From Escherichia coli O127:H6 str. E2348/69 (GTDB lineage Bacteria > Pseudomonadota > Gammaproteobacteria > Enterobacterales > Enterobacteriaceae): a DNA stretch of 64,000 bases. The notes under the pieces were generated by a model. The model saw only the letters and a list, made by a program, of their open reading frames with translations. It did not search any database and had not been told where the DNA came from. Of the stretch, positions 2,686-61,634 are shown one piece after another; the first letter of the stretch is position 1, and every line of letters begins with the position of its first letter. Where the stretch lies: assembly GCF_000026545.1 (NCBI RefSeq), contig NC_011601.1; one strand, 5' to 3'. A program made the translations under genes and the position numbers.

Positions 2686-3813
2686 ATGTCGTGCCCGGTT
2701 ATTGAGCTGACACAACAGCTTATTCGCCGCCCTTCCCTGAGTCCTGATGACGCAGGATGCCAGGCTTTGTTGATTGAACGTTTGCAGGCGATCGGTTTTA
2801 CCGTTGAACGCATGGACTTTGCCGACACGCAGAATTTTTGGGCATGGCGTGGGCAGGGTGAAACGTTAGCCTTTGCCGGGCATACCGACGTGGTGCCGCC
2901 TGGCGACGCCGACCGTTGGATCAATCCGCCGTTTGAACCCACCATTCGTGATGGCATGTTATTCGGGCGCGGTGCGGCAGATATGAAAGGCTCGCTGGCG
3001 GCGATGGTGGTAGCGGCAGAACGCTTTGTCGCACAACATCCCAACCATACGGGACGACTGGCATTTCTGATCACCTCTGATGAAGAAGCCAGTGCCCACA
3101 ACGGTACGGTAAAAGTCGTCGAAGCGTTAATGGCGCGTAATGAGCGTCTCGATTACTGCCTGGTCGGCGAACCGTCGAGTATCGAAGTGGTTGGTGATGT
3201 GGTGAAAAATGGTCGTCGCGGATCGTTAACCTGTAACCTTACTATTCATGGCGTGCAGGGGCATGTTGCCTACCCACATCTGGCTGACAATCCGGTACAT
3301 CGCGCAGCACCTTTCCTTAATGAATTAGTGGCTATTGAGTGGGATCAGGGCAATGAATTCTTCCCGGCGACCAGTATGCAGATTGCCAATATTCAGGCGG
3401 GAACGGGCAGTAACAACGTTATTCCGGGTGAACTGTTTGTGCAGTTTAACTTCCGCTTCAGCACCGAACTGACTGATGAGATGATCAAAGCGCAGGTACT
3501 TGCCCTGCTTGAAAAACATCAACTGCGCTATACGGTGGATTGGTGGCTTTCCGGGCAGCCATTTTTGACCGCGCGCGGTAAACTGGTGGATGCGGTCGTT
3601 AACGCGGTTGAGCACTATAATGAAATTAAACCGCAGCTACTGACCACAGGCGGAACGTCCGACGGGCGCTTTATTGCCCGCATGGGGGCGCAGGTGGTGG
3701 AACTCGGGCCGGTCAATGCCACGATTCATAAAATTAATGAATGTGTGAACGCTGCCGACCTGCAGCTACTTGCCCGTATGTATCAACGTATCATGGAACA
3801 GCTCGTCGCCTGA
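2686..3813 (+). CDS. dapE: Succinyl-diaminopimelate desuccinylase
   Basis: 375-aa ORF, M20 peptidase motifs ([15 protein letters not shown]). Confidence 0.95.
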
Positions 3814-40183: not shown

Positions 40184-42690
40184 TGCGGGATCCCCTCTGA
40201 GAATCTCTGGCGCTGTTGGGTAAGGTCGATGACGACAGGAGTTCCATCATCTTTCAGCAAATACCCAGTGCCGAGTTTCACCAGATACTGGCTATCTCCA
40301 TAGCTTTGCAGACCGTACTGGCCTGGCGGTGCTTTAATTCCTGCGCCAGTCACCTGAGTTTTCCATGCCTGATCAACTTGTTTATCAAATTGTTCGGCAG
40401 ACATCCCCCAAGGCAAAAGAACACTTCCCATGCCGTTATAATCGTGCACGCCACCAGTAGCTACGTTAACAGCCTGCTTCCATGTGTCACTGTCAACTTC
40501 ACCCGAAACCACACCCTTCTTCGCCATCACCCCAGCGTAATAGTCCTTTGCTATCTCATAGGCCATTGATGCACCCTGCGCGTCACCGGCAAACGCATCC
40601 TTCACCATGTCAGAAAACTCTAGTCGCAGATCGTTATCCTTCGGCATTGGTATGCCCTTAGCATCATCAGTTCCTTTACGAGCCGCGGCACCGGACAGGA
40701 TGGTTTGCGCTGCTGTTTCTGGTGATACAGAAACATCAGGGTTAAACCAGTTTTTCTCAGCTACCACTCCTCCTGGCTTATCCATCAGGATCCCAGCTAC
40801 TGCTGCTGATGGCGCATTGGTGCTTATCTGCTGAAGCGCTGACATATATACCTGACCGCCCCCGGTGCTCTGCCGAATGGTGTCGAGATATGCAGTCTGC
40901 TGAGAAACTGGTGCATCGCGGAAGAAAGCCCCGATCTGATTCGCCTCTTCTTTGGAAAAGAACGTCAGCGGCGTACCGTATGACTTAGCCAGATCTACAG
41001 CCTGAGAAGCCCGAAGGGAAATCGTCTGGCCGAAATTGTTCTGGTTGGTCATATCAATAGGCTTTGTTTGACCGGAAGAAAGTGAAAACTGAATTGGGTC
41101 TGCTTTACGTTGCGCAAGAACAGTACTGGCAGCAGAGACAACGGCGTCATAGGTTTGGGCGCGCGCTGCATATCCTTCGCCAGTTTCACCAGTATCTGGC
41201 TTCAGATTTTCTACTGCTGCCTGAATGCTGCTGGTCGGCATGTTGCGAAACGATCCTATGTACTGCCCTGCGATCTGCGTGTTGCGAAACTCGGTATAGC
41301 GTAGATTTCCCTCCCGCACGCCGTAGGCGGCGAGGAAGTCGTTCTGCGTAGGCGCGTTCGGGAAATCAACTCCGCGCATGTATGCCGCGCTGGCATCGCG
41401 TACGCGGCTGTCGATATTGGTGCGGTATTCAGCCTGCTGCTGTTTACGGATCTGGTCAGCCTGGCGAAGGAATGTCGCCTGGGCCTCCGGAGATGCTGCA
41501 TCGAATGCCGCATTGCCGGTATAGCGCTTTGTGCTGGTTGGAAGTTGAGAGAGGCCAATTGCCGCGCTAACACCGGTAGCAAGTTGCTGATCGCTGTACG
41601 GCTGACTGCCGTTCTCATGTTGGATAATGGAGGCACACAAAGCCTTTAGCGTATCAGGGTTTGAGGCATCAAGCGGCTGGTCAGGCGTCACACCGAGTTG
41701 AGCACATACTGCCTGAATATAGGCGTCAGTGTTGTTATTGTCAGACGGCGGTGCCCAGCGATTAATGATGTCGTTTACAGTATCAATACCCTGTCTCTGG
41801 TATGACAGCAGGTTGCGTCCAAGCGCCCGAATGCCGTGTTCTGGCGTTTCGAATTTTGCAAATCGACCATCATCACCGGTCTGGCCCACCCACGGATTGG
41901 TTTTGCTGTATTCGAGGTTTCCTGGGTTGTTGTTGCGAATGCCACGGGCGCTATCACCAGAACCACCTTCTGATACTGCACGGCGGGAACCAGTAACTGT
42001 ATCGCTTAACTCGCCATTGCTCTGGATGAACTCGATCGAATTATTTGCCGACCACTGAGAAAGGGAAGCATCGGCGACCTTCTCTTTGAACTCAATCTTT
42101 TTGGCCTGAATCTGTTCAGAACTCCAGCCATGAGCGGAGCCATAATCTTCGATCTGCTGGAAAGTCTGCTGGTTGTAGAGAACATAATTGGCATTATCAC
42201 CATAGGCGGCAGCAGCCAGTTTTCCGTTGTTCGCCAGAGTCGCCTGGAACTGACCTTCTTCATAGGCATTGAGTTGGCTTATCTCATGCCTGCCAGCCTG
42301 GGTGGTGAACTGAATGCGCTGCTGCTGAGCCTGCTGTATAAATCCAGCCCGGGCACCTTCCGGCAATGTCATCGCGATCTGCTCTGCCTGAGCATCGAAT
42401 TGCTGGGTATAAACCTGCCCCTTGCCAAGAGCGTTCTTACCCTGCATGTTTAGAAGCCCGGTATCCGGGTTGGTTAGCAGATCACTGGAAATCTGGCTGA
42501 GTTGCAATGATGCATCCTGAGCCTGAGCAACATCCGCGCGCTGTTTTGCCTGAGCAAAAACATCAAGTGCTTTACCACCAACCTGCGTCAGGGCATCTCC
42601 GATATTTGGCTGATCGAATGCCTGAAAACCAGGAGACTGAAACCCTCTGCTTTCGACCTGACGACCGGTGACTGTTGGTACTGTTGGCAT
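40180..42690 (-). CDS. Internal virion protein (T7 gp15-like position)
   Basis: 836-aa ORF; gene-order analogy. Confidence 0.5.
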   Translation of the reverse strand: MPTVPTVTGRQVESRGFQSPGFQAFDQPNIGDALTQVGGKALDVFAQAKQRADVAQAQDASLQLSQISSDLLTNPDTGLLNMQGKNALGKGQVYTQQFDAQAEQIAMTLPEGARAGFIQQAQQQRIQFTTQAGRHEISQLNAYEEGQFQATLANNGKLAAAAYGDNANYVLYNQQTFQQIEDYGSAHGWSSEQIQAKKIEFKEKVADASLSQWSANNSIEFIQSNGELSDTVTGSRRAVSEGGSGDSARGIRNNNPGNLEYSKTNPWVGQTGDDGRFAKFETPEHGIRALGRNLLSYQRQGIDTVNDIINRWAPPSDNNNTDAYIQAVCAQLGVTPDQPLDASNPDTLKALCASIIQHENGSQPYSDQQLATGVSAAIGLSQLPTSTKRYTGNAAFDAASPEAQATFLRQADQIRKQQQAEYRTNIDSRVRDASAAYMRGVDFPNAPTQNDFLAAYGVREGNLRYTEFRNTQIAGQYIGSFRNMPTSSIQAAVENLKPDTGETGEGYAARAQTYDAVVSAASTVLAQRKADPIQFSLSSGQTKPIDMTNQNNFGQTISLRASQAVDLAKSYGTPLTFFSKEEANQIGAFFRDAPVSQQTAYLDTIRQSTGGGQVYMSALQQISTNAPSAAVAGILMDKPGGVVAEKNWFNPDVSVSPETAAQTILSGAAARKGTDDAKGIPMPKDNDLRLEFSDMVKDAFAGDAQGASMAYEIAKDYYAGVMAKKGVVSGEVDSDTWKQAVNVATGGVHDYNGMGSVLLPWGMSAEQFDKQVDQAWKTQVTGAGIKAPPGQYGLQSYGDSQYLVKLGTGYLLKDDGTPVVIDLTQQRQRFSEGIPQ

Positions 42691-52297: not shown

Positions 52298-52504
52298 TTA
52301 CTGACCAAGCAGCGTTTTACCGCTGGTGTTTGCGGTTGAAGTGTCACCCTGCGCACCAGTCAGCAGAGTAGAGCTGCGCCCTGCTGCTGCGCGGCGGCGG
52401 CGCTCTTCGTCGTCACGAGAACTGACAACTGCTGCATCCTGCTCCTGTGGCGCAGCCTGTACTTCTGGCGCTGCTGGCACTGATGGCTTGCTGCCGATAC
52501 ACAT
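52298..52504 (-). CDS. Small basic protein upstream of portal
   Basis: 68-aa ORF ending 15 bp before the portal start. Confidence 0.4.
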   Translation of the reverse strand: MCIGSKPSVPAAPEVQAAPQEQDAAVVSSRDDEERRRRAAAGRSSTLLTGAQGDTSTANTSGKTLLGQ

Positions 52505-52593
52505 AGCAATAGCTCCGTACGCAATTAAATTATTACCAATTTAACCACATATGATTTATTTAGCGTAGGATATTGACACTTATAACATCAGAT

Positions 52594-52610
52594 ATTACCT
52601 TTTAGGTAAT
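52594..52610. promoter_or_regulatory. Operator-type palindrome ATTACC-N5-GGTAAT (site a)
   Basis: ATTACCTTTTAGGTAAT with TTGACA 16 bp upstream; lies between the head operon and the plus-strand island. Confidence 0.5.
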
Positions 52611-53056
52611 TGGTTCGTGTGTTGAATTGATGAATTGCGGAGGTGGTTATGTAACCGCTTGTGCAGTAGCCCGGAGTACCGCAGCAATAAATTGGGCTTA
52701 AAAGTAAAGGCGGTGGATAAGCGGAGCATCATCTCCGCACATAACTAAAAGCGCGCTTCAGTGAATGACCTTTGAGCCTGGTCGTTAAATCCAAACGGTG
52801 GAGTGCGCTTTCAGGTGTGTAGCAGTACGGCATATGGCACATGTGCCGCAGCGGTCCGGATGGGTTCCCTTGATGCTACTTCCCCAGCCGGGTAGCCGGA
52901 ATGTGCAAGCCAGTGTTAGGTAAGCACGGACAGACGATTCACCATCGTGGCGATACGGTGTGACACCTCGGAAGAGACGAGGATGCAACGATGATAGCAT
53001 TGGGGTGACCGGTTAATCCCATGACGATAACCGATACAGGCGCAGTGCTCTCTTCG

Positions 53057-53169
53057 TTGTGGTTAGCTCAGATAGGTTAGAGCTCCATCCATGCTTGCCA
53101 TTGCTGCATGGGCGGGGAATGGGTTCCGAAAGGATCGCCGCGCAGGTTCGAATCCTGCACCACAACCCA
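53057..53169 (+). ncRNA. tRNA-like element with non-canonical 58-nt middle region
   Basis: 7-bp acceptor stem (TTGTGGT/ACCACAA), D-arm TAGCTCAGATAGGTTAGAGC, T-arm GCAGGTTCGAATCCTGC, discriminator and encoded CCA; no standard anticodon arm. Confidence 0.5.
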
Positions 53170-53338
53170 ATCACGCCTTAGGACCGTGATGAAGCGCCCA
53201 TAAGAACAATGCTGTGTAGCCTTTGGCGGTGGCAGTTTCCCTTGATGCTGACCACCGTCACTTTTACACCAGAACGCCATTGCGATGACGTTGCGCTGTA
53301 AACCCGTAAGCCATGGAAGGCACCCTTGCTTCCATTTC

Positions 53339-53363
53339 GCCCGGTTCGTCCGGGCATTTTTTT
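53339..53363 (+). terminator. Intrinsic terminator downstream of the tRNA-like element
   Basis: GCCCGG-TTCGT-CCGGGC hairpin followed by ATTTTTTT. Confidence 0.65.
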
Positions 53364-53375
53364 AAGGTGATTAGA

Positions 53376-53807
53376 ATGAGTAAAGACCTGTTCGACATGA
53401 AGCGCCTTCCGGTTGACCGGGTTGCTGCGAGAGTTGTTGGTAAGGGCGTTGATTGGACGCCAAATAAAGTTATTCAAACTGGTGACAGCGATCTTCCGTT
53501 GCCAGTATTTCCTGCATATAACATTAAAAACCCGCAACAACGACGCGAAGTGCAAGCAATGATCGGAAGAAAGAGCGGGAGATTGACAATAATTGGTCTC
53601 GCGGTCACACAGGGAGCAAAAAATAAAGGGGCTCGCTATGTTGCTCGTTGTGTTTGCGGGATTTATACGTATCGCAGAGCAAAAAATTTCAAGAATAATT
53701 CTGATGATTTTGACGGATGCGAGCGCTGCAGAGAACTGTTGTTTCTCAAAAGGGAAGAAGTTAAACGCAGAACGGGAAAATGGGTTGACTGGAAAGAGCT
53801 GATGTAA
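53376..53807 (+). CDS. Cys-rich protein of unknown function (moron gene)
   Basis: ATG at 53376 with AAGGTGA ribosome-binding site; 143 aa containing CVCG...CERC; opposite strand to the flanking terminase and portal genes. Confidence 0.55.
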   Translation: MSKDLFDMKRLPVDRVAARVVGKGVDWTPNKVIQTGDSDLPLPVFPAYNIKNPQQRREVQAMIGRKSGRLTIIGLAVTQGAKNKGARYVARCVCGIYTYRRAKNFKNNSDDFDGCERCRELLFLKREEVKRRTGKWVDWKELM

Positions 53808-55941: not shown

Positions 55942-55958
55942 ATTACCGTTTTGGTAAT
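55942..55958. promoter_or_regulatory. Operator-type palindrome ATTACC-N5-GGTAAT (site b)
   Basis: ATTACCGTTTTGGTAAT about 20 bp upstream of the terminase small-subunit start. Confidence 0.5.
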
Positions 55959-56364: not shown

Positions 56365-56479
56365 GGATAGCGCTCCATGCCAGATTAATTAATGATTCCC
56401 AGGCGATGTAAACCCTGATTCCTGCAGCCACGCCAAACCCGATTATCATGGAGTAAAGCAGAGCGTCGCACTTGGACAT
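56357..56479 (-). CDS. Small hydrophobic protein (40 aa)
   Basis: ATG overlaps the upstream stop (TGATG) and its stop overlaps the downstream GTG start; GGAGGTG ribosome-binding site; below the ORF-track cutoff. Confidence 0.5.
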   Translation of the reverse strand: MSKCDALLYSMIIGFGVAAGIRVYIAWESLINLAWSAIRG

Positions 56480-56901
56480 CACTTCACCTCCTGCTGTGGT
56501 GCTGCTGCTAAATGCTCGACACCTTTAGCCCAAATAGCTTTGATGGTCGTCCATGTGACAGGAACGGTGATTTCAATTCTTCCGCTGCCGTCGCAGGTTT
56601 CGCAATCATCATCACCAAAACACTCTGGGCAGTTTATAAATTTCGTTTCTGAAAACTCACCGGACAACACACCCTTTGCGCCGTTCTCAGCGGTTAGCTT
56701 CTTCGGCACTAGTACGTAACCATCCGGAGATACCGGAGAGTTGCCAGCCTGAAGCATGGCTGCGCGGAGTTGTTGTAGTTCGGCCAGCGCTAGCATTACA
56801 TCATCAATGACAGGCAACTCCATTTCATACAATTCAAGAGAATCCCTAGCCACACGGATAAGTACGCTCAGACGCTCGTCTGTTAGGTTGTTATTGGTCA
56901 T
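56479..56901 (-). CDS. Hypothetical early protein with CxxC...CxxC motif
   Basis: 140-aa ORF with overlapping start and stop codons to its neighbours. Confidence 0.5.
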   Translation of the reverse strand: MTNNNLTDERLSVLIRVARDSLELYEMELPVIDDVMLALAELQQLRAAMLQAGNSPVSPDGYVLVPKKLTAENGAKGVLSGEFSETKFINCPECFGDDDCETCDGSGRIEITVPVTWTTIKAIWAKGVEHLAAAPQQEVK

Positions 56902-57194
56902 TTTTCATCTCCTTTAAGCATGGCGGCGCGGCAGTCACATTCGATGAGTATCGGCTCTCCCCATGGCTGAACGCCGCCACTATCAGCCATTCCGGTGTCG
57001 TTACATTTAGGACAAGGTACTGGCTCCGCACTAAACGATGCAATCACTCCATCAATCACCTTCACAGCATCAGCCATTGCGTAGCCGAGATTGCCTCCGT
57101 CACTTTGTGCTGCTGCTTTGCTGAGTATTTCGCTTATCTGGTGCAGGCGATCGAGTGATACAGGACCGTTCGCCGGGTGGTTGTTAGTTGTCAT
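56898..57194 (-). CDS. Hypothetical early protein, Cys-rich
   Basis: 98-aa ORF. Confidence 0.5.
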   Translation of the reverse strand: MTTNNHPANGPVSLDRLHQISEILSKAAAQSDGGNLGYAMADAVKVIDGVIASFSAEPVPCPKCNDTGMADSGGVQPWGEPILIECDCRAAMLKGDEK

Positions 57195-57204
57195 GGGTTA
57201 GTCC

Positions 57205-57411
57205 TCAGTTGTAACCAATCGGATTAACTGCAACCAGAACGCCGTCTGCGAACAGGTCTTTAATAATGTGCTCACACGGCTCGCCTGTTTCGTACTCTTC
57301 AACCAGGTACGTGTCGCCATCTTCATTGAGATAAACAGGAAAGATGGAACCATTGATAAAGTAGGTGCCGTTGTTATCAAGAATCTTTGCTTCTGCAATT
57401 TGTGTTTTCAT
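57205..57411 (-). CDS. Hypothetical early protein
   Basis: ORF 57205..57438; start placed at MKTQIAEAK (GGAGG ribosome-binding site). Confidence 0.5.
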   Translation of the reverse strand: MKTQIAEAKILDNNGTYFINGSIFPVYLNEDGDTYLVEEYETGEPCEHIIKDLFADGVLVAVNPIGYN

Positions 57412-57413
57412 TG

Positions 57414-57665
57414 TTAGTCCTCCCACTCTGTATCCCATTCAACCCAAGCGCCTTCACCATCAGCCTCGATAACACCCTGATTGCCACACTGCGGACACTT
57501 AACCAGGTCACCGCCGTAAAGGTATGTCCCTGCCAATGAGCGACTGATAACTTCAATCCCCTTGCTGCACTGGCAGTGTTCGCACGAATTAAGCCAGTCA
57601 ACGCGATATAACACTGGCTCCCACAACATGGTTTTGCTCTCACTTTGGAACAGCAATCTGCTCAT
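57414..57665 (-). CDS. Zinc-ribbon-like small protein
   Basis: 83-aa ORF with CEHCQC and CPQC motifs. Confidence 0.5.
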   Translation of the reverse strand: MSRLLFQSESKTMLWEPVLYRVDWLNSCEHCQCSKGIEVISRSLAGTYLYGGDLVKCPQCGNQGVIEADGEGAWVEWDTEWED

Positions 57666-57964
57666 ATCTCCCCCTTCACGCCAATGCCAGCGGCGCTTTC
57701 TAACAAGTCGTCAGCGGCCTGAATATCAGCGCCATCCAGCGATGCGCCATCAGCCGCAGCACGGAAACAGGTTTTGACAAATTCCTTCAGCCCCGCATTC
57801 TCCGCAGCCAGAGCATTACTACGAGCAAGTTGCACATCCAACTGCGTTGCCAGATCGCTAATCAGTTGTGCCACGTCTCGCACATCGACGGCGCCGCATG
57901 ATGCCTTCAGCTCTGCGGACTGATCATGTCCGCGCTTTACCAGATCACTCACTTTGCATTCCAT
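57662..57964 (-). CDS. Hypothetical early protein
   Basis: 100-aa ORF. Confidence 0.5.
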   Translation of the reverse strand: MECKVSDLVKRGHDQSAELKASCGAVDVRDVAQLISDLATQLDVQLARSNALAAENAGLKEFVKTCFRAAADGASLDGADIQAADDLLESAAGIGVKGEI

Positions 57965-58369: not shown

Positions 58370-58448
58370 TTTACCTCTCAGGTAATTTAAAACCACAAAC
58401 GAGTTAATTTCAATAGCAATGCGCATATTTTATTACCTTTTTGGTAAT
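58370..58448. promoter_or_regulatory. Two operator-type palindromes (TTTACC-N5-GGTAAT and ATTACC-N5-GGTAAT)
   Basis: Sites at 58370-58386 and 58432-58448 between the P-like gene and the 113-aa gene. Confidence 0.45.
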
Positions 58449-59266: not shown

Positions 59267-60073
59267 TCACAGGAAATCCTCCCACGCCTCTGGACTGTTC
59301 CAGTGCGGTACGTTGTTTTCAGGTGAGGTCAGTTTGTTCTGTCTGCTGATCTGCAGACGTCTGGCAAGTTTTTGCTCCCATTGCGCATGGTGGAAAGCCT
59401 TACCCTCGGCCATCCAGTAAACCCTGAACTCTGCAAGCTCCTGCGGTGTTGGCTGGCAATCCAGGTTAATACCCTGCAGAGATGACACCCGGAGAAAATC
59501 ATCCGATGGTGACCAGAGCTCATGCATGACAAATTTCCCGAATTGCCCAAGTCCACCAGGAGGGACAAAGTTGTTAATTACGGCGTTGTTGGCGTCAGGT
59601 TCAGGCGGTACTAAACCACCAGTTTTATCGCCCCTCTCCTTCTCTTGGTTATATGACTGGTTAACTGATAGGTTCTGCATCCCGTTTTTGGGATCATTCA
59701 ACTTCCCGTTTTTGGGATCATTCAACTTCCCGTTTTTGGGTATACTCCCAATTTTGGTAACATTACCGTTTTTGGGTATACTCCCAATTTTGGTAACATT
59801 ACCGTTTTTGGGTATGTTTAAAGAGAAAACCCGGACCCTTCTTGTTGCCCCTTTTCTTTCTCCTGTATCTGAAATTAACCCCATACCGATGAGCGAAATC
59901 AGCCCTGCCTGAACCGTTTTTTTATTCAGGCTTGTGTCGGTAACCAGGCGTTCGATGCTTGGATAACACAGGTTATATTCATCGGCTCGATCAGCCATCG
60001 AGAGCAGGATGAGTTTCAGTGATGAGCTGCCCGGATTTGTTTTCCATGCCCACTCTGTTGCGTGTCTGCTCAT
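59267..60073 (-). CDS. Replication initiator O-like, with iterons inside the gene
   Basis: 268-aa ORF whose central region is encoded by tandem repeats (IPKNGNVTKIGS, KLNDPKNG); located upstream of the P-like gene. Confidence 0.65.
   Translation of the reverse strand: MSRHATEWAWKTNPGSSSLKLILLSMADRADEYNLCYPSIERLVTDTSLNKKTVQAGLISLIGMGLISDTGERKGATRRVRVFSLNIPKNGNVTKIGSIPKNGNVTKIGSIPKNGKLNDPKNGKLNDPKNGMQNLSVNQSYNQEKERGDKTGGLVPPEPDANNAVINNFVPPGGLGQFGKFVMHELWSPSDDFLRVSSLQGINLDCQPTPQELAEFRVYWMAEGKAFHHAQWEQKLARRLQISRQNKLTSPENNVPHWNSPEAWEDFL
59681..59812. repeat. Iteron array (candidate origin of replication)
   Basis: Five copies of CCGTTTTTGGG spaced 24, 24, 36 and 36 bp; the 36-bp units each contain GGTAACATTACC. 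Confidence 0.6.
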
Positions 60074-60436: not shown

Positions 60437-60670
60437 TTATCGGTCGTAGAAGAAGAGCACTAATTCAGGTTTAGACTTTGTCCATTCGCGGGAGCGACAC
60501 GCTTTAAAAAGACCTTCCATCAGACGCTTACCCGGCATCTTACGGCGACCGGTCAGGTGCGTCTGGATGTAATGACTGGTGGTACCGGCTTCAACTGCAA
60601 ATGCTTCACGCTCATCAGGAGACAGCCCCAGCCAGTGCTTTTTGAAATCAAATTTTTTTTCGTCACTCAT
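60437..60670 (-). CDS. Cro-like HTH regulator
   Basis: 77-aa ORF, first gene of the leftward operon, divergent from the repressor gene. Confidence 0.65.
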   Translation of the reverse strand: MSDEKKFDFKKHWLGLSPDEREAFAVEAGTTSHYIQTHLTGRRKMPGKRLMEGLFKACRSREWTKSKPELVLFFYDR

Positions 60671-60704: not shown

Positions 60705-60772
60705 AATTATTACCTTTCTGGTGAAAAAATCAATGATTATTACCATTATGGTAACTTTACCTTTATGGTAAT
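60705..60772. promoter_or_regulatory. OR-like region: three operator palindromes plus leftward promoter
   Basis: Sites at 60709-60725, 60739-60755 and 60756-60772; minus-strand TTGATT-N17-ATAATT promoter at 60705-60733 with the first site in its spacer. Confidence 0.6.
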
Positions 60773-60825: not shown

Positions 60826-61422
60826 ATGAAAAGTATTTATGACATAAGACGCAAAAACCTTAACGAAATCATTCGCCGGGATTTCGATGACACCCAGTTA
60901 CGCTTTGCAGAACGGGTGAAGCGTTCGCAGAACCTGGTCAACAGGTGGTGTACTGGTATCAAAAATATCGGACCTAATGCCGCGCGTATCATCGAAGAAG
61001 CAGCCCGCAAAGAAAAGTTCTGGCTTGATGTCGATCACGAACTGGACGCAGTACAGGATGATATCTTTATTCCGGCCACTGAAGATGGAGAATGGACTGT
61101 AGAGAAGCAGGCCGCCGCCACGCTCAATGCCTGGATGAGAAAGAACAGTGAAATGACATCCGAAAAGAAAGTTGCTGTTGCAGCTGGCATTGGACCTGCC
61201 ACCGTTAACCGCATCATGAAAGCGGAAGTCAGCACAACCATCGGCGTTCTTTCCTCCCTGGCGCGCGCGTTCGGGCATGAAGCATACGAGATGATTATTC
61301 CCGTCGGCTCACCTGGTGTTATCGACTATGACCACCGGATGTATGCAGCCCTGCCACAGGAAGAGAAAAACAAGATCACCTCATTCATCAACTTCGTGTT
61401 TGAGCAGAACAAAAGCAAGTAA
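60826..61422 (+). CDS. Prophage repressor (CI-equivalent) without S24 peptidase domain
   Basis: 198-aa ORF divergent from cro-like gene; HTH-like segments; no Ala-Gly / Ser-Lys autocleavage signature seen. Confidence 0.55.
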   Translation: MKSIYDIRRKNLNEIIRRDFDDTQLRFAERVKRSQNLVNRWCTGIKNIGPNAARIIEEAARKEKFWLDVDHELDAVQDDIFIPATEDGEWTVEKQAAATLNAWMRKNSEMTSEKKVAVAAGIGPATVNRIMKAEVSTTIGVLSSLARAFGHEAYEMIIPVGSPGVIDYDHRMYAALPQEEKNKITSFINFVFEQNKSK

Positions 61423-61479: not shown

Positions 61480-61634
61480 ATTACCAAAATGGTAATTTTT
61501 TCTCGTCATACCTATTGACACAATCACTTTTTGATCTGATTATTACCTAAAAGGTAATACAAGAGCGCATTGCTCAGGCAGAAACCACCACTTCGTGGCT
61601 TTCCTGTATCTACTAGTATTACCAAAATGGTAAT
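61480..61634. promoter_or_regulatory. OL-like region: three operator palindromes plus rightward promoter
   Basis: Sites at 61480-61496, 61542-61558 and 61618-61634; plus-strand TTGACA-N17-GATTAT promoter at 61515-61543. Confidence 0.6.

Follow-up and report, generated by a model that had tools for sequence, protein, structure and literature searches.

The 198-residue open reading frame examined here very probably encodes Rep, the lysogeny (immunity) repressor of an epsilon15-like (Uetakevirus) prophage of Escherichia coli O127:H6 E2348/69, and the same prophage carries a near-identical copy of the small antirepressor, Ant, that pairs with repressors of this type. All positions refer to the window, that is, the whole stretch of 64,000 nucleotides that was analysed. 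The reading frame, from ATG to TAA on the plus strand, was confirmed exactly at 60826..61422. It is evidently a real gene and not a chance ORF, because a search against the sequences of solved structures matched its full length (residues 1-198) to PDB 5D50 chain A, named 'Repressor', with E=4.6e-127. A second entry, 5D4Z chain A, matched residues 92-198 without gaps (E=2.1e-63). Both structures are of Rep of the Salmonella phage SPC32H, and the epsilon15 GenBank record gives 5d50_A for its gp38. The protein is identical to SPC32H Rep at 192 of 198 positions (97%) and to epsilon15 gp38 at 194 of 198. The six differences from SPC32H Rep (L17R, A78D, D107N, T108S, A162S and I165V) are conservative; two of them fall in the Ant-binding tail, and A78D and A162S also set the window Rep apart from epsilon15 gp38. 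On all Rep features that could be tested from sequence, the protein joins the SPC32H Rep/epsilon15 gp38 family. The RefSeq label in E2348/69 is 'helix-turn-helix domain-containing protein'. The Rep/Ant pair as such is already known, having been described for SPC32H (Kim & Ryu 2013; Kim et al. 2016).

Over its first 6 kb and over positions 24001-64000, the window agrees at 100% identity with assemblies of E2348/69. The prophage is about 40 kb long, runs from about 28.3 kb to past the window end and is inserted between yfgI and guaA. Its genes run in the same order as those of the Uetakevirus phages epsilon15, SPN1S, SPC32H and PAT1. RefSeq flags three small early-region ORFs at 56479-57964 as incomplete pseudogenes, so the accessory 'ea' region is partly decayed. 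The genes for structural proteins, lysis, replication and the integrase all look intact. RefSeq also annotates a 'pseudogenic tRNA-Gly' at 53057-53169, where SPC32H has a tRNA-Arg; ARAGORN found no tRNA in 52400-53500. Between the lysis cassette and the tailspike gene (30351-32525), where SPC32H and epsilon15 carry their O-antigen-modifying genes, the window has an acyltransferase-family gene and a gene for a hypothetical protein of 335 aa; together they are probably a serotype-conversion module peculiar to this E. coli prophage. A DnaT-like replication gene (ORF 59267..60073, minus strand) contains perfect tandem repeats at 59680-59740; a 24-bp unit is present in 2.5 copies and a 36-bp unit in 2.4 copies, and both encode repeated peptide units. 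About 1.2 kb past the window end, the early-left operon of the prophage includes a gene that RefSeq annotates as a PerC-family transcriptional regulator (41163-41462 of record L046). PerC-type regulators are linked to the control of virulence genes in EPEC.

The domain content of Rep was assessed with Pfam, which placed HTH_3/HTH_31 on residues 104-150 and weaker HTH-type matches on residues ~4-75, in agreement with the HTH-like segments reported in the first-pass annotation. In the solved SPC32H protein, the N-terminal domain binds DNA, the middle one serves dimerisation, and the C-terminal one brings about tetramerisation and is also where the antirepressor binds; the description of that structure mentions no protease domain (PMC9986798). 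The same three-part architecture can be recognised in the predicted window protein, with an N-terminal HTH, an HTH_3-like dimerisation domain and a tetramerisation/Ant-binding tail. The first-pass annotation had further claimed that the protein is without a LexA-type autocleavage domain or a Ser/Lys dyad region, and had proposed a domain search as the check. That search bears the claim out: with Pfam matches listed to E<=10, only HTH domains were returned for Rep, and neither Peptidase_S24 (PF00717) nor a Ser/Lys dyad was found, while E. coli LexA, included in the same run as a positive control, matched Peptidase_S24 with E=1.1e-36. Searches of NCBIfam with Rep, Ant and the cro-like protein described below produced no match above the cut-off. 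The accompanying claim that there is no Ala-Gly cleavage site needs amending. One such dipeptide is present, A120-G121 ('VAVAAGIGPATV'), but it sits at the turn of the middle HTH-like domain (104-150) and not in a hinge, so the claim holds for a cleavage site and not for the dipeptide itself. A scan of the whole protein found no Cys-Gly and no Ala-Gly in the inter-domain hinge. Only ~40 residues remain after the HTH_3-like domain, too few for an S24 fold, which needs ~116 profile positions. Judged by its sequence, Rep lacks each of the features that define the S24 autocleaving repressors.

The proposed partner of Rep lies 25 kb away in the same prophage. The 86-aa product of this gene was matched to PDB 5D50 chain E, 'Anti-repressor protein', with E=2.3e-54 and 85 of 86 residues identical, and tblastn gave 98.8% identity to SPC32H Ant. 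Both partners of the co-crystallised Rep-Ant complex (PDB 5D50) are thus encoded in the window. The SPC32H record likewise places an 86-aa 'anti-repressor protein' (ant) between the injection-protein genes and the tailspike gene. RefSeq labels the E2348/69 protein 'hypothetical protein'. It has no Pfam family, and among PHROGs it matched only phrog_450 (unknown function) and, weakly, phrog_1760 'anti-repressor'.

The immunity region is organised around a palindrome, ATTACC-N5-GGTAAT. With <=2 mismatches allowed, the window contains 18 such sites where 1.69 would be expected, and a count of 18 was not attained in any of 100 shuffled sequences. Fifteen of the 18 sites, including all seven perfect ones, are inside the prophage (Table 1). 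Predicted operators flank rep with three on each side, and they occur at the same offsets in epsilon15 and SPC32H. The sites at 61480, 61542, 61618, 58432 and 35348 correspond one-to-one with features annotated as 'protein_bind: repressor, lysogeny' in epsilon15 (AY150271.2), and all predicted Rep operator sites are conserved in SPC32H. The gene has therefore been rightly described as occupying the CI position with operator clusters around it: an early operon lies on either side of rep, and the clusters, at 60709-60772 and 61480-61634, are syntenic with those of epsilon15 and SPC32H. The recombination genes follow downstream of rep on the same strand. A PL-like candidate promoter toward them is bracketed by the operator at 61480 and overlapped by that at 61542. 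An ImmR/ImmA type of system was considered and rejected, as the neighbours of rep encode a 77-aa cro-like protein and a 49-aa protein, no early-region peptidase is annotated, and Pfam scans of the neighbours were negative. Conserved palindromes also occur far from the immunity region (35348, 52594, 55942 and 58370-58448), which suggests that Rep may directly control more than the two early promoters, possibly including that of ant or of the tailspike gene.

Table 1. Features of the Rep/Ant switch region in the window. Operators, promoters and the cro-like gene are predictions.
Feature	Coordinates	Strand	Basis
rep, repressor of the SPC32H Rep/epsilon15 gp38 type	60826..61422	+	ORF; matches to 5D50_A and 5D4Z_A; identities
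ant, 86-aa antirepressor, cognate partner of Rep	35441..35701	+	85/86 identical to 5D50_E
LexA-box-like palindrome TACTGTATGTTTTATACAGTG (CTGT-N9-ACAG), 20 nt upstream of the ant ATG	35401..35421	+	Comparison of the box with relatives
Perfect putative operator ATTACCTTACAGGTAAT, tailspike-ant intergenic region	35348..35364		Annotated repressor site in epsilon15; conserved in SPC32H
Perfect putative operator upstream of the head/portal operon	52594..52610		Conserved in SPC32H at 3174-3190
Perfect putative operator, 5' end of the small-terminase gene	55942..55958		Conserved in SPC32H at 11-27
Two putative operators, gap between the replication gene and a downstream nuclease-like gene	58370-58386 (1 mismatch), 58432-58448 (perfect)		Motif scan; epsilon15 equivalent is an annotated repressor site
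cro-like candidate, 77 aa, divergent, epsilon15 gp39 homologue	60437..60670	-	phrog_35 'transcriptional repressor' (2.1e-10); gp39 synteny
Promoter-like TTGATT-16-AATAAT toward the cro-like gene, overlapping the operator at 60709-60725	60706..60733	-	Consensus match, not above shuffle expectation
Upstream putative operators, gap between rep and the cro-like gene	60709-60725 (2 mismatches), 60739-60755 (1), 60756-60772 (1)		Motif scan; synteny
Downstream putative operators before the early recombination operon, all perfect	61480-61496, 61542-61558, 61618-61634		Motif scan; synteny
Promoter-like TTGACA-17-GATTAT (10/12), candidate PL-like early promoter	61515..61543	+	Consensus match only

These features point to a Rep/Ant antirepressor switch in the E2348/69 prophage, a reading in which we place high confidence and whose steps are taken over from the near-identity to SPC32H Rep. 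The identities of Rep and Ant, the absence of S24, the operator map and the LexA-box-like palindrome at ant were each read directly from the window. In the lysogen, Rep tetramers would keep the two early operons silent by occupying the ATTACC-N5-GGTAAT sites beside the gene, together with several more distant sites. Having no protease domain, Rep would stay uncleaved in the SOS response; SPC32H Rep is reportedly uncleaved during SOS, and the ant gene of that phage is said to be repressed by LexA. DNA damage would lead to self-cleavage of LexA and derepression of the small ant gene (35441-35701), and the Ant tetramer would then grip the C-terminal tails of two Rep dimers, splitting the Rep tetramer and taking it off the DNA. 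The scheme follows what has been reported for Salmonella phages of this group, in which self-cleavage of LexA allows the antirepressor to be made and the antirepressor acts on the repressor by protein-protein contact (PMC7380047, citing Kim & Ryu 2013). Rep binds DNA as a tetramer, which is broken up when an Ant tetramer engages two Rep dimers (PMC9638917; see also bioRxiv 2025.11.27.690993). The earlier suggestion that induction is unlikely to proceed by RecA-stimulated self-cleavage, and that an antirepressor is the more plausible route, is supported by homology because of this near-identity to the tested SPC32H system, with Rep 97% and Ant 99% identical to the co-crystallised pair.

The palindrome upstream of ant is where the window departs from its relatives. 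Here the box carries one extra T (run at 35410-35413, T4) relative to the canonical CTGT-N8-ACAG arrangement (T3), for which the sequence is TACTGTATGTTTATACAGTG. The CTGT-N8-ACAG pattern occurs nowhere in the 64-kb window. In any single register only one half-site of the N9 box is aligned, giving 10 of 20 matches to the consensus against 17 of 20 for the N8 box. The site at ant is thus not a canonical LexA box, a result that bears on the regulation of ant and not on the identity of Rep. The N8 box was read directly in eight phages (epsilon15, SPN1S, 65FD, VB_ST_E15, VB_ST_SPNIS2, SPC32H, Tyrion and phiV10), and a canonical box was present in all 12 of the phage relatives checked. It was also found in 29 of 30 IMG/VR and GTDB loci, the lone N9 locus being this same genome, as well as in E. 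coli MARGA_3 and ET846 and in another E2348/69 assembly, CP059840.2. The N9 box was seen only in the window and in LT827011 and LT903847, which are both E2348/69 assemblies of Sanger/Imperial source.

Over 50 kb, only four differences separate CP059840.2 from the window: two SNPs, the extra T and one 24-bp repeat unit. The additional 24-bp unit of CP059840.2 lies in the repeats of the DnaT-like gene (59680-59740). One A/G difference, at 33828, falls in the tailspike gene (32555..35284, minus strand), for which the RefSeq accessions differ. With so few differences over this length, it is unlikely that the T3/T4 difference belongs to a widespread pattern of homopolymer errors. The extra T looks like a lineage-specific mutation, with an error in either assembly possible. 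The sibling phages SPC32H and SPC32N have the boxes TACTGTATGTTTATACAGT and TACTGTATGTTTATAAAGT, respectively, which differ by a C>A change inside the box. A point mutation in the LexA box of ant reportedly causes SPC32N to make Ant constitutively, and these sequences agree with that account.

Alternatives to inactivation of Rep by Ant were weighed against the same data. Inactivation of Rep by RecA-stimulated self-cleavage, for which a cryptic or divergent protease region would be responsible, is highly improbable. The Ala-Gly at residues 120-121 is what could be cited for it; that pair is embedded in the HTH_3-like domain, the stretch behind this domain is short, and the Pfam run that readily recognised LexA returned no Peptidase_S24. 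Moreover, the solved, 97%-identical protein is made up of DNA-binding, dimerisation and tetramerisation domains with no protease (PMC9986798), and a review holds that these Salmonella phages are not induced mainly by cleavage of the repressor (PMC7380047). Many ORFs of the prophage are unannotated, which leaves room for some factor other than the 86-aa Ant to act on Rep, such as a KilAC/Bro-type antirepressor or an ImmA-like metalloprotease, but we consider this very unlikely. The RefSeq annotation of the whole prophage contains no other antirepressor and no ImmA-like protein, Pfam scans of 12 unannotated prophage ORFs (from the early region and elsewhere) found no antirepressor or protease domain, and the genes beside rep encode proteins of 77 and 49 aa only. 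The 99%-identical copy of a proven partner, Ant, is present in the prophage.

A further alternative accepts the Rep/Ant switch but holds that it is uncoupled from SOS in this stock, either because ant has escaped LexA control or because ant is silent and the prophage locked in; we regard this as a live possibility, at somewhat under even chances. It draws on the confinement of the N9 box to three E2348/69 sequences amid N8 relatives that include CP059840.2, and on a comparison with that assembly that is free of scattered homopolymer errors. The LexA dimer is said to measure half-site spacing strictly; with only one half-site in register, the N9 box should therefore bind LexA poorly. The LexA step may consequently be weakened or lost in the N9 lineage and SOS control of ant altered. 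Against this stand the possibility that the T3 of CP059840.2 is itself an assembly error and the outcome of a consensus scan, in which neither the T4 nor the T3 version yielded an ant promoter. The prophage appears intact in every N9 assembly, which makes strongly constitutive production of Ant in this lineage unlikely; the locked-in version is compatible with the same observation, and an insertion that also weakened an overlapping ant promoter would fit. Our specific proposal, which we advance tentatively, is that the extra T is a genuine mutation of the Sanger/Imperial E2348/69 lineage that re-spaces the half-sites and possibly alters the promoter, making this stock a natural switch mutant, most likely locked in and not SOS-inducible, with CP059840.2 keeping the wild-type switch. 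A search of the literature for work on whether this E2348/69 prophage can be induced yielded nothing relevant. For the Rep/Ant switch as a whole, the non-canonical spacing of the ant LexA box makes the link to SOS less certain in the window than in SPC32H.

Identifying the pair in an E. coli prophage is largely a re-identification and in itself of little importance, given that the genetics and crystal structures have been published for SPC32H. It could nevertheless improve the E2348/69 annotation of Rep and Ant, considering their present RefSeq labels. The sole new element is the lineage difference in the ant LexA box. E2348/69 stocks differ by one base in the very site meant to couple the prophage to DNA damage, and this difference could make the prophage behave differently between laboratories. 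If the switch-mutant reading is true, a prophage under antirepressor control has a naturally mutated switch in a widely used EPEC reference stock.

Among known systems, the closest is SPC32H (PDB 5D50, 5D4Z), which shares with the window the gene order, the operator motif and positions, Rep (192/198) and Ant (85/86). In both, ant lies between the tailspike and injection-protein genes with a LexA-box palindrome immediately upstream. The two differ in host (E. coli, EPEC E2348/69, versus Salmonella), in the tailspike and O-antigen modification genes, in part of the replication module and in the spacing of the LexA box (N9 in the window, N8 in SPC32H). The correspondence with epsilon15 (AY150271.2; Kropinski et al. 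2007) is equally direct for the repressor (gp38, 194/198) and for the annotated repressor sites. Unlike the window, epsilon15 has a canonical LexA box, and its Ant homologue, gp19, is annotated as hypothetical only.

In regulatory logic the predicted switch resembles those of 186 (CI/Tum), Gifsy-1/-3 and Fels-2, which likewise pair a non-cleavable repressor with a small LexA-controlled antirepressor acting by protein-protein inhibition (Lemire et al. 2011; PMC7380047). In contrast to this likeness, no sequence relationship to the 186 CI/Tum, Gifsy or Fels-2 proteins was found. SPC32H Ant is reportedly also structurally distinct from antirepressors of the 186/Gifsy/Fels-2 type. With the lambda CI, P22 C2 and LexA family, Rep shares an N-terminal HTH and a genomic setting in which an early operon and several operators lie to either side of the repressor gene. 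It differs from them in being without an S24 domain, a hinge cleavage site and a Ser/Lys dyad; in their place, the C-terminal part of Rep would consist of a dimerisation domain followed by a short tetramerisation/Ant-binding tail.
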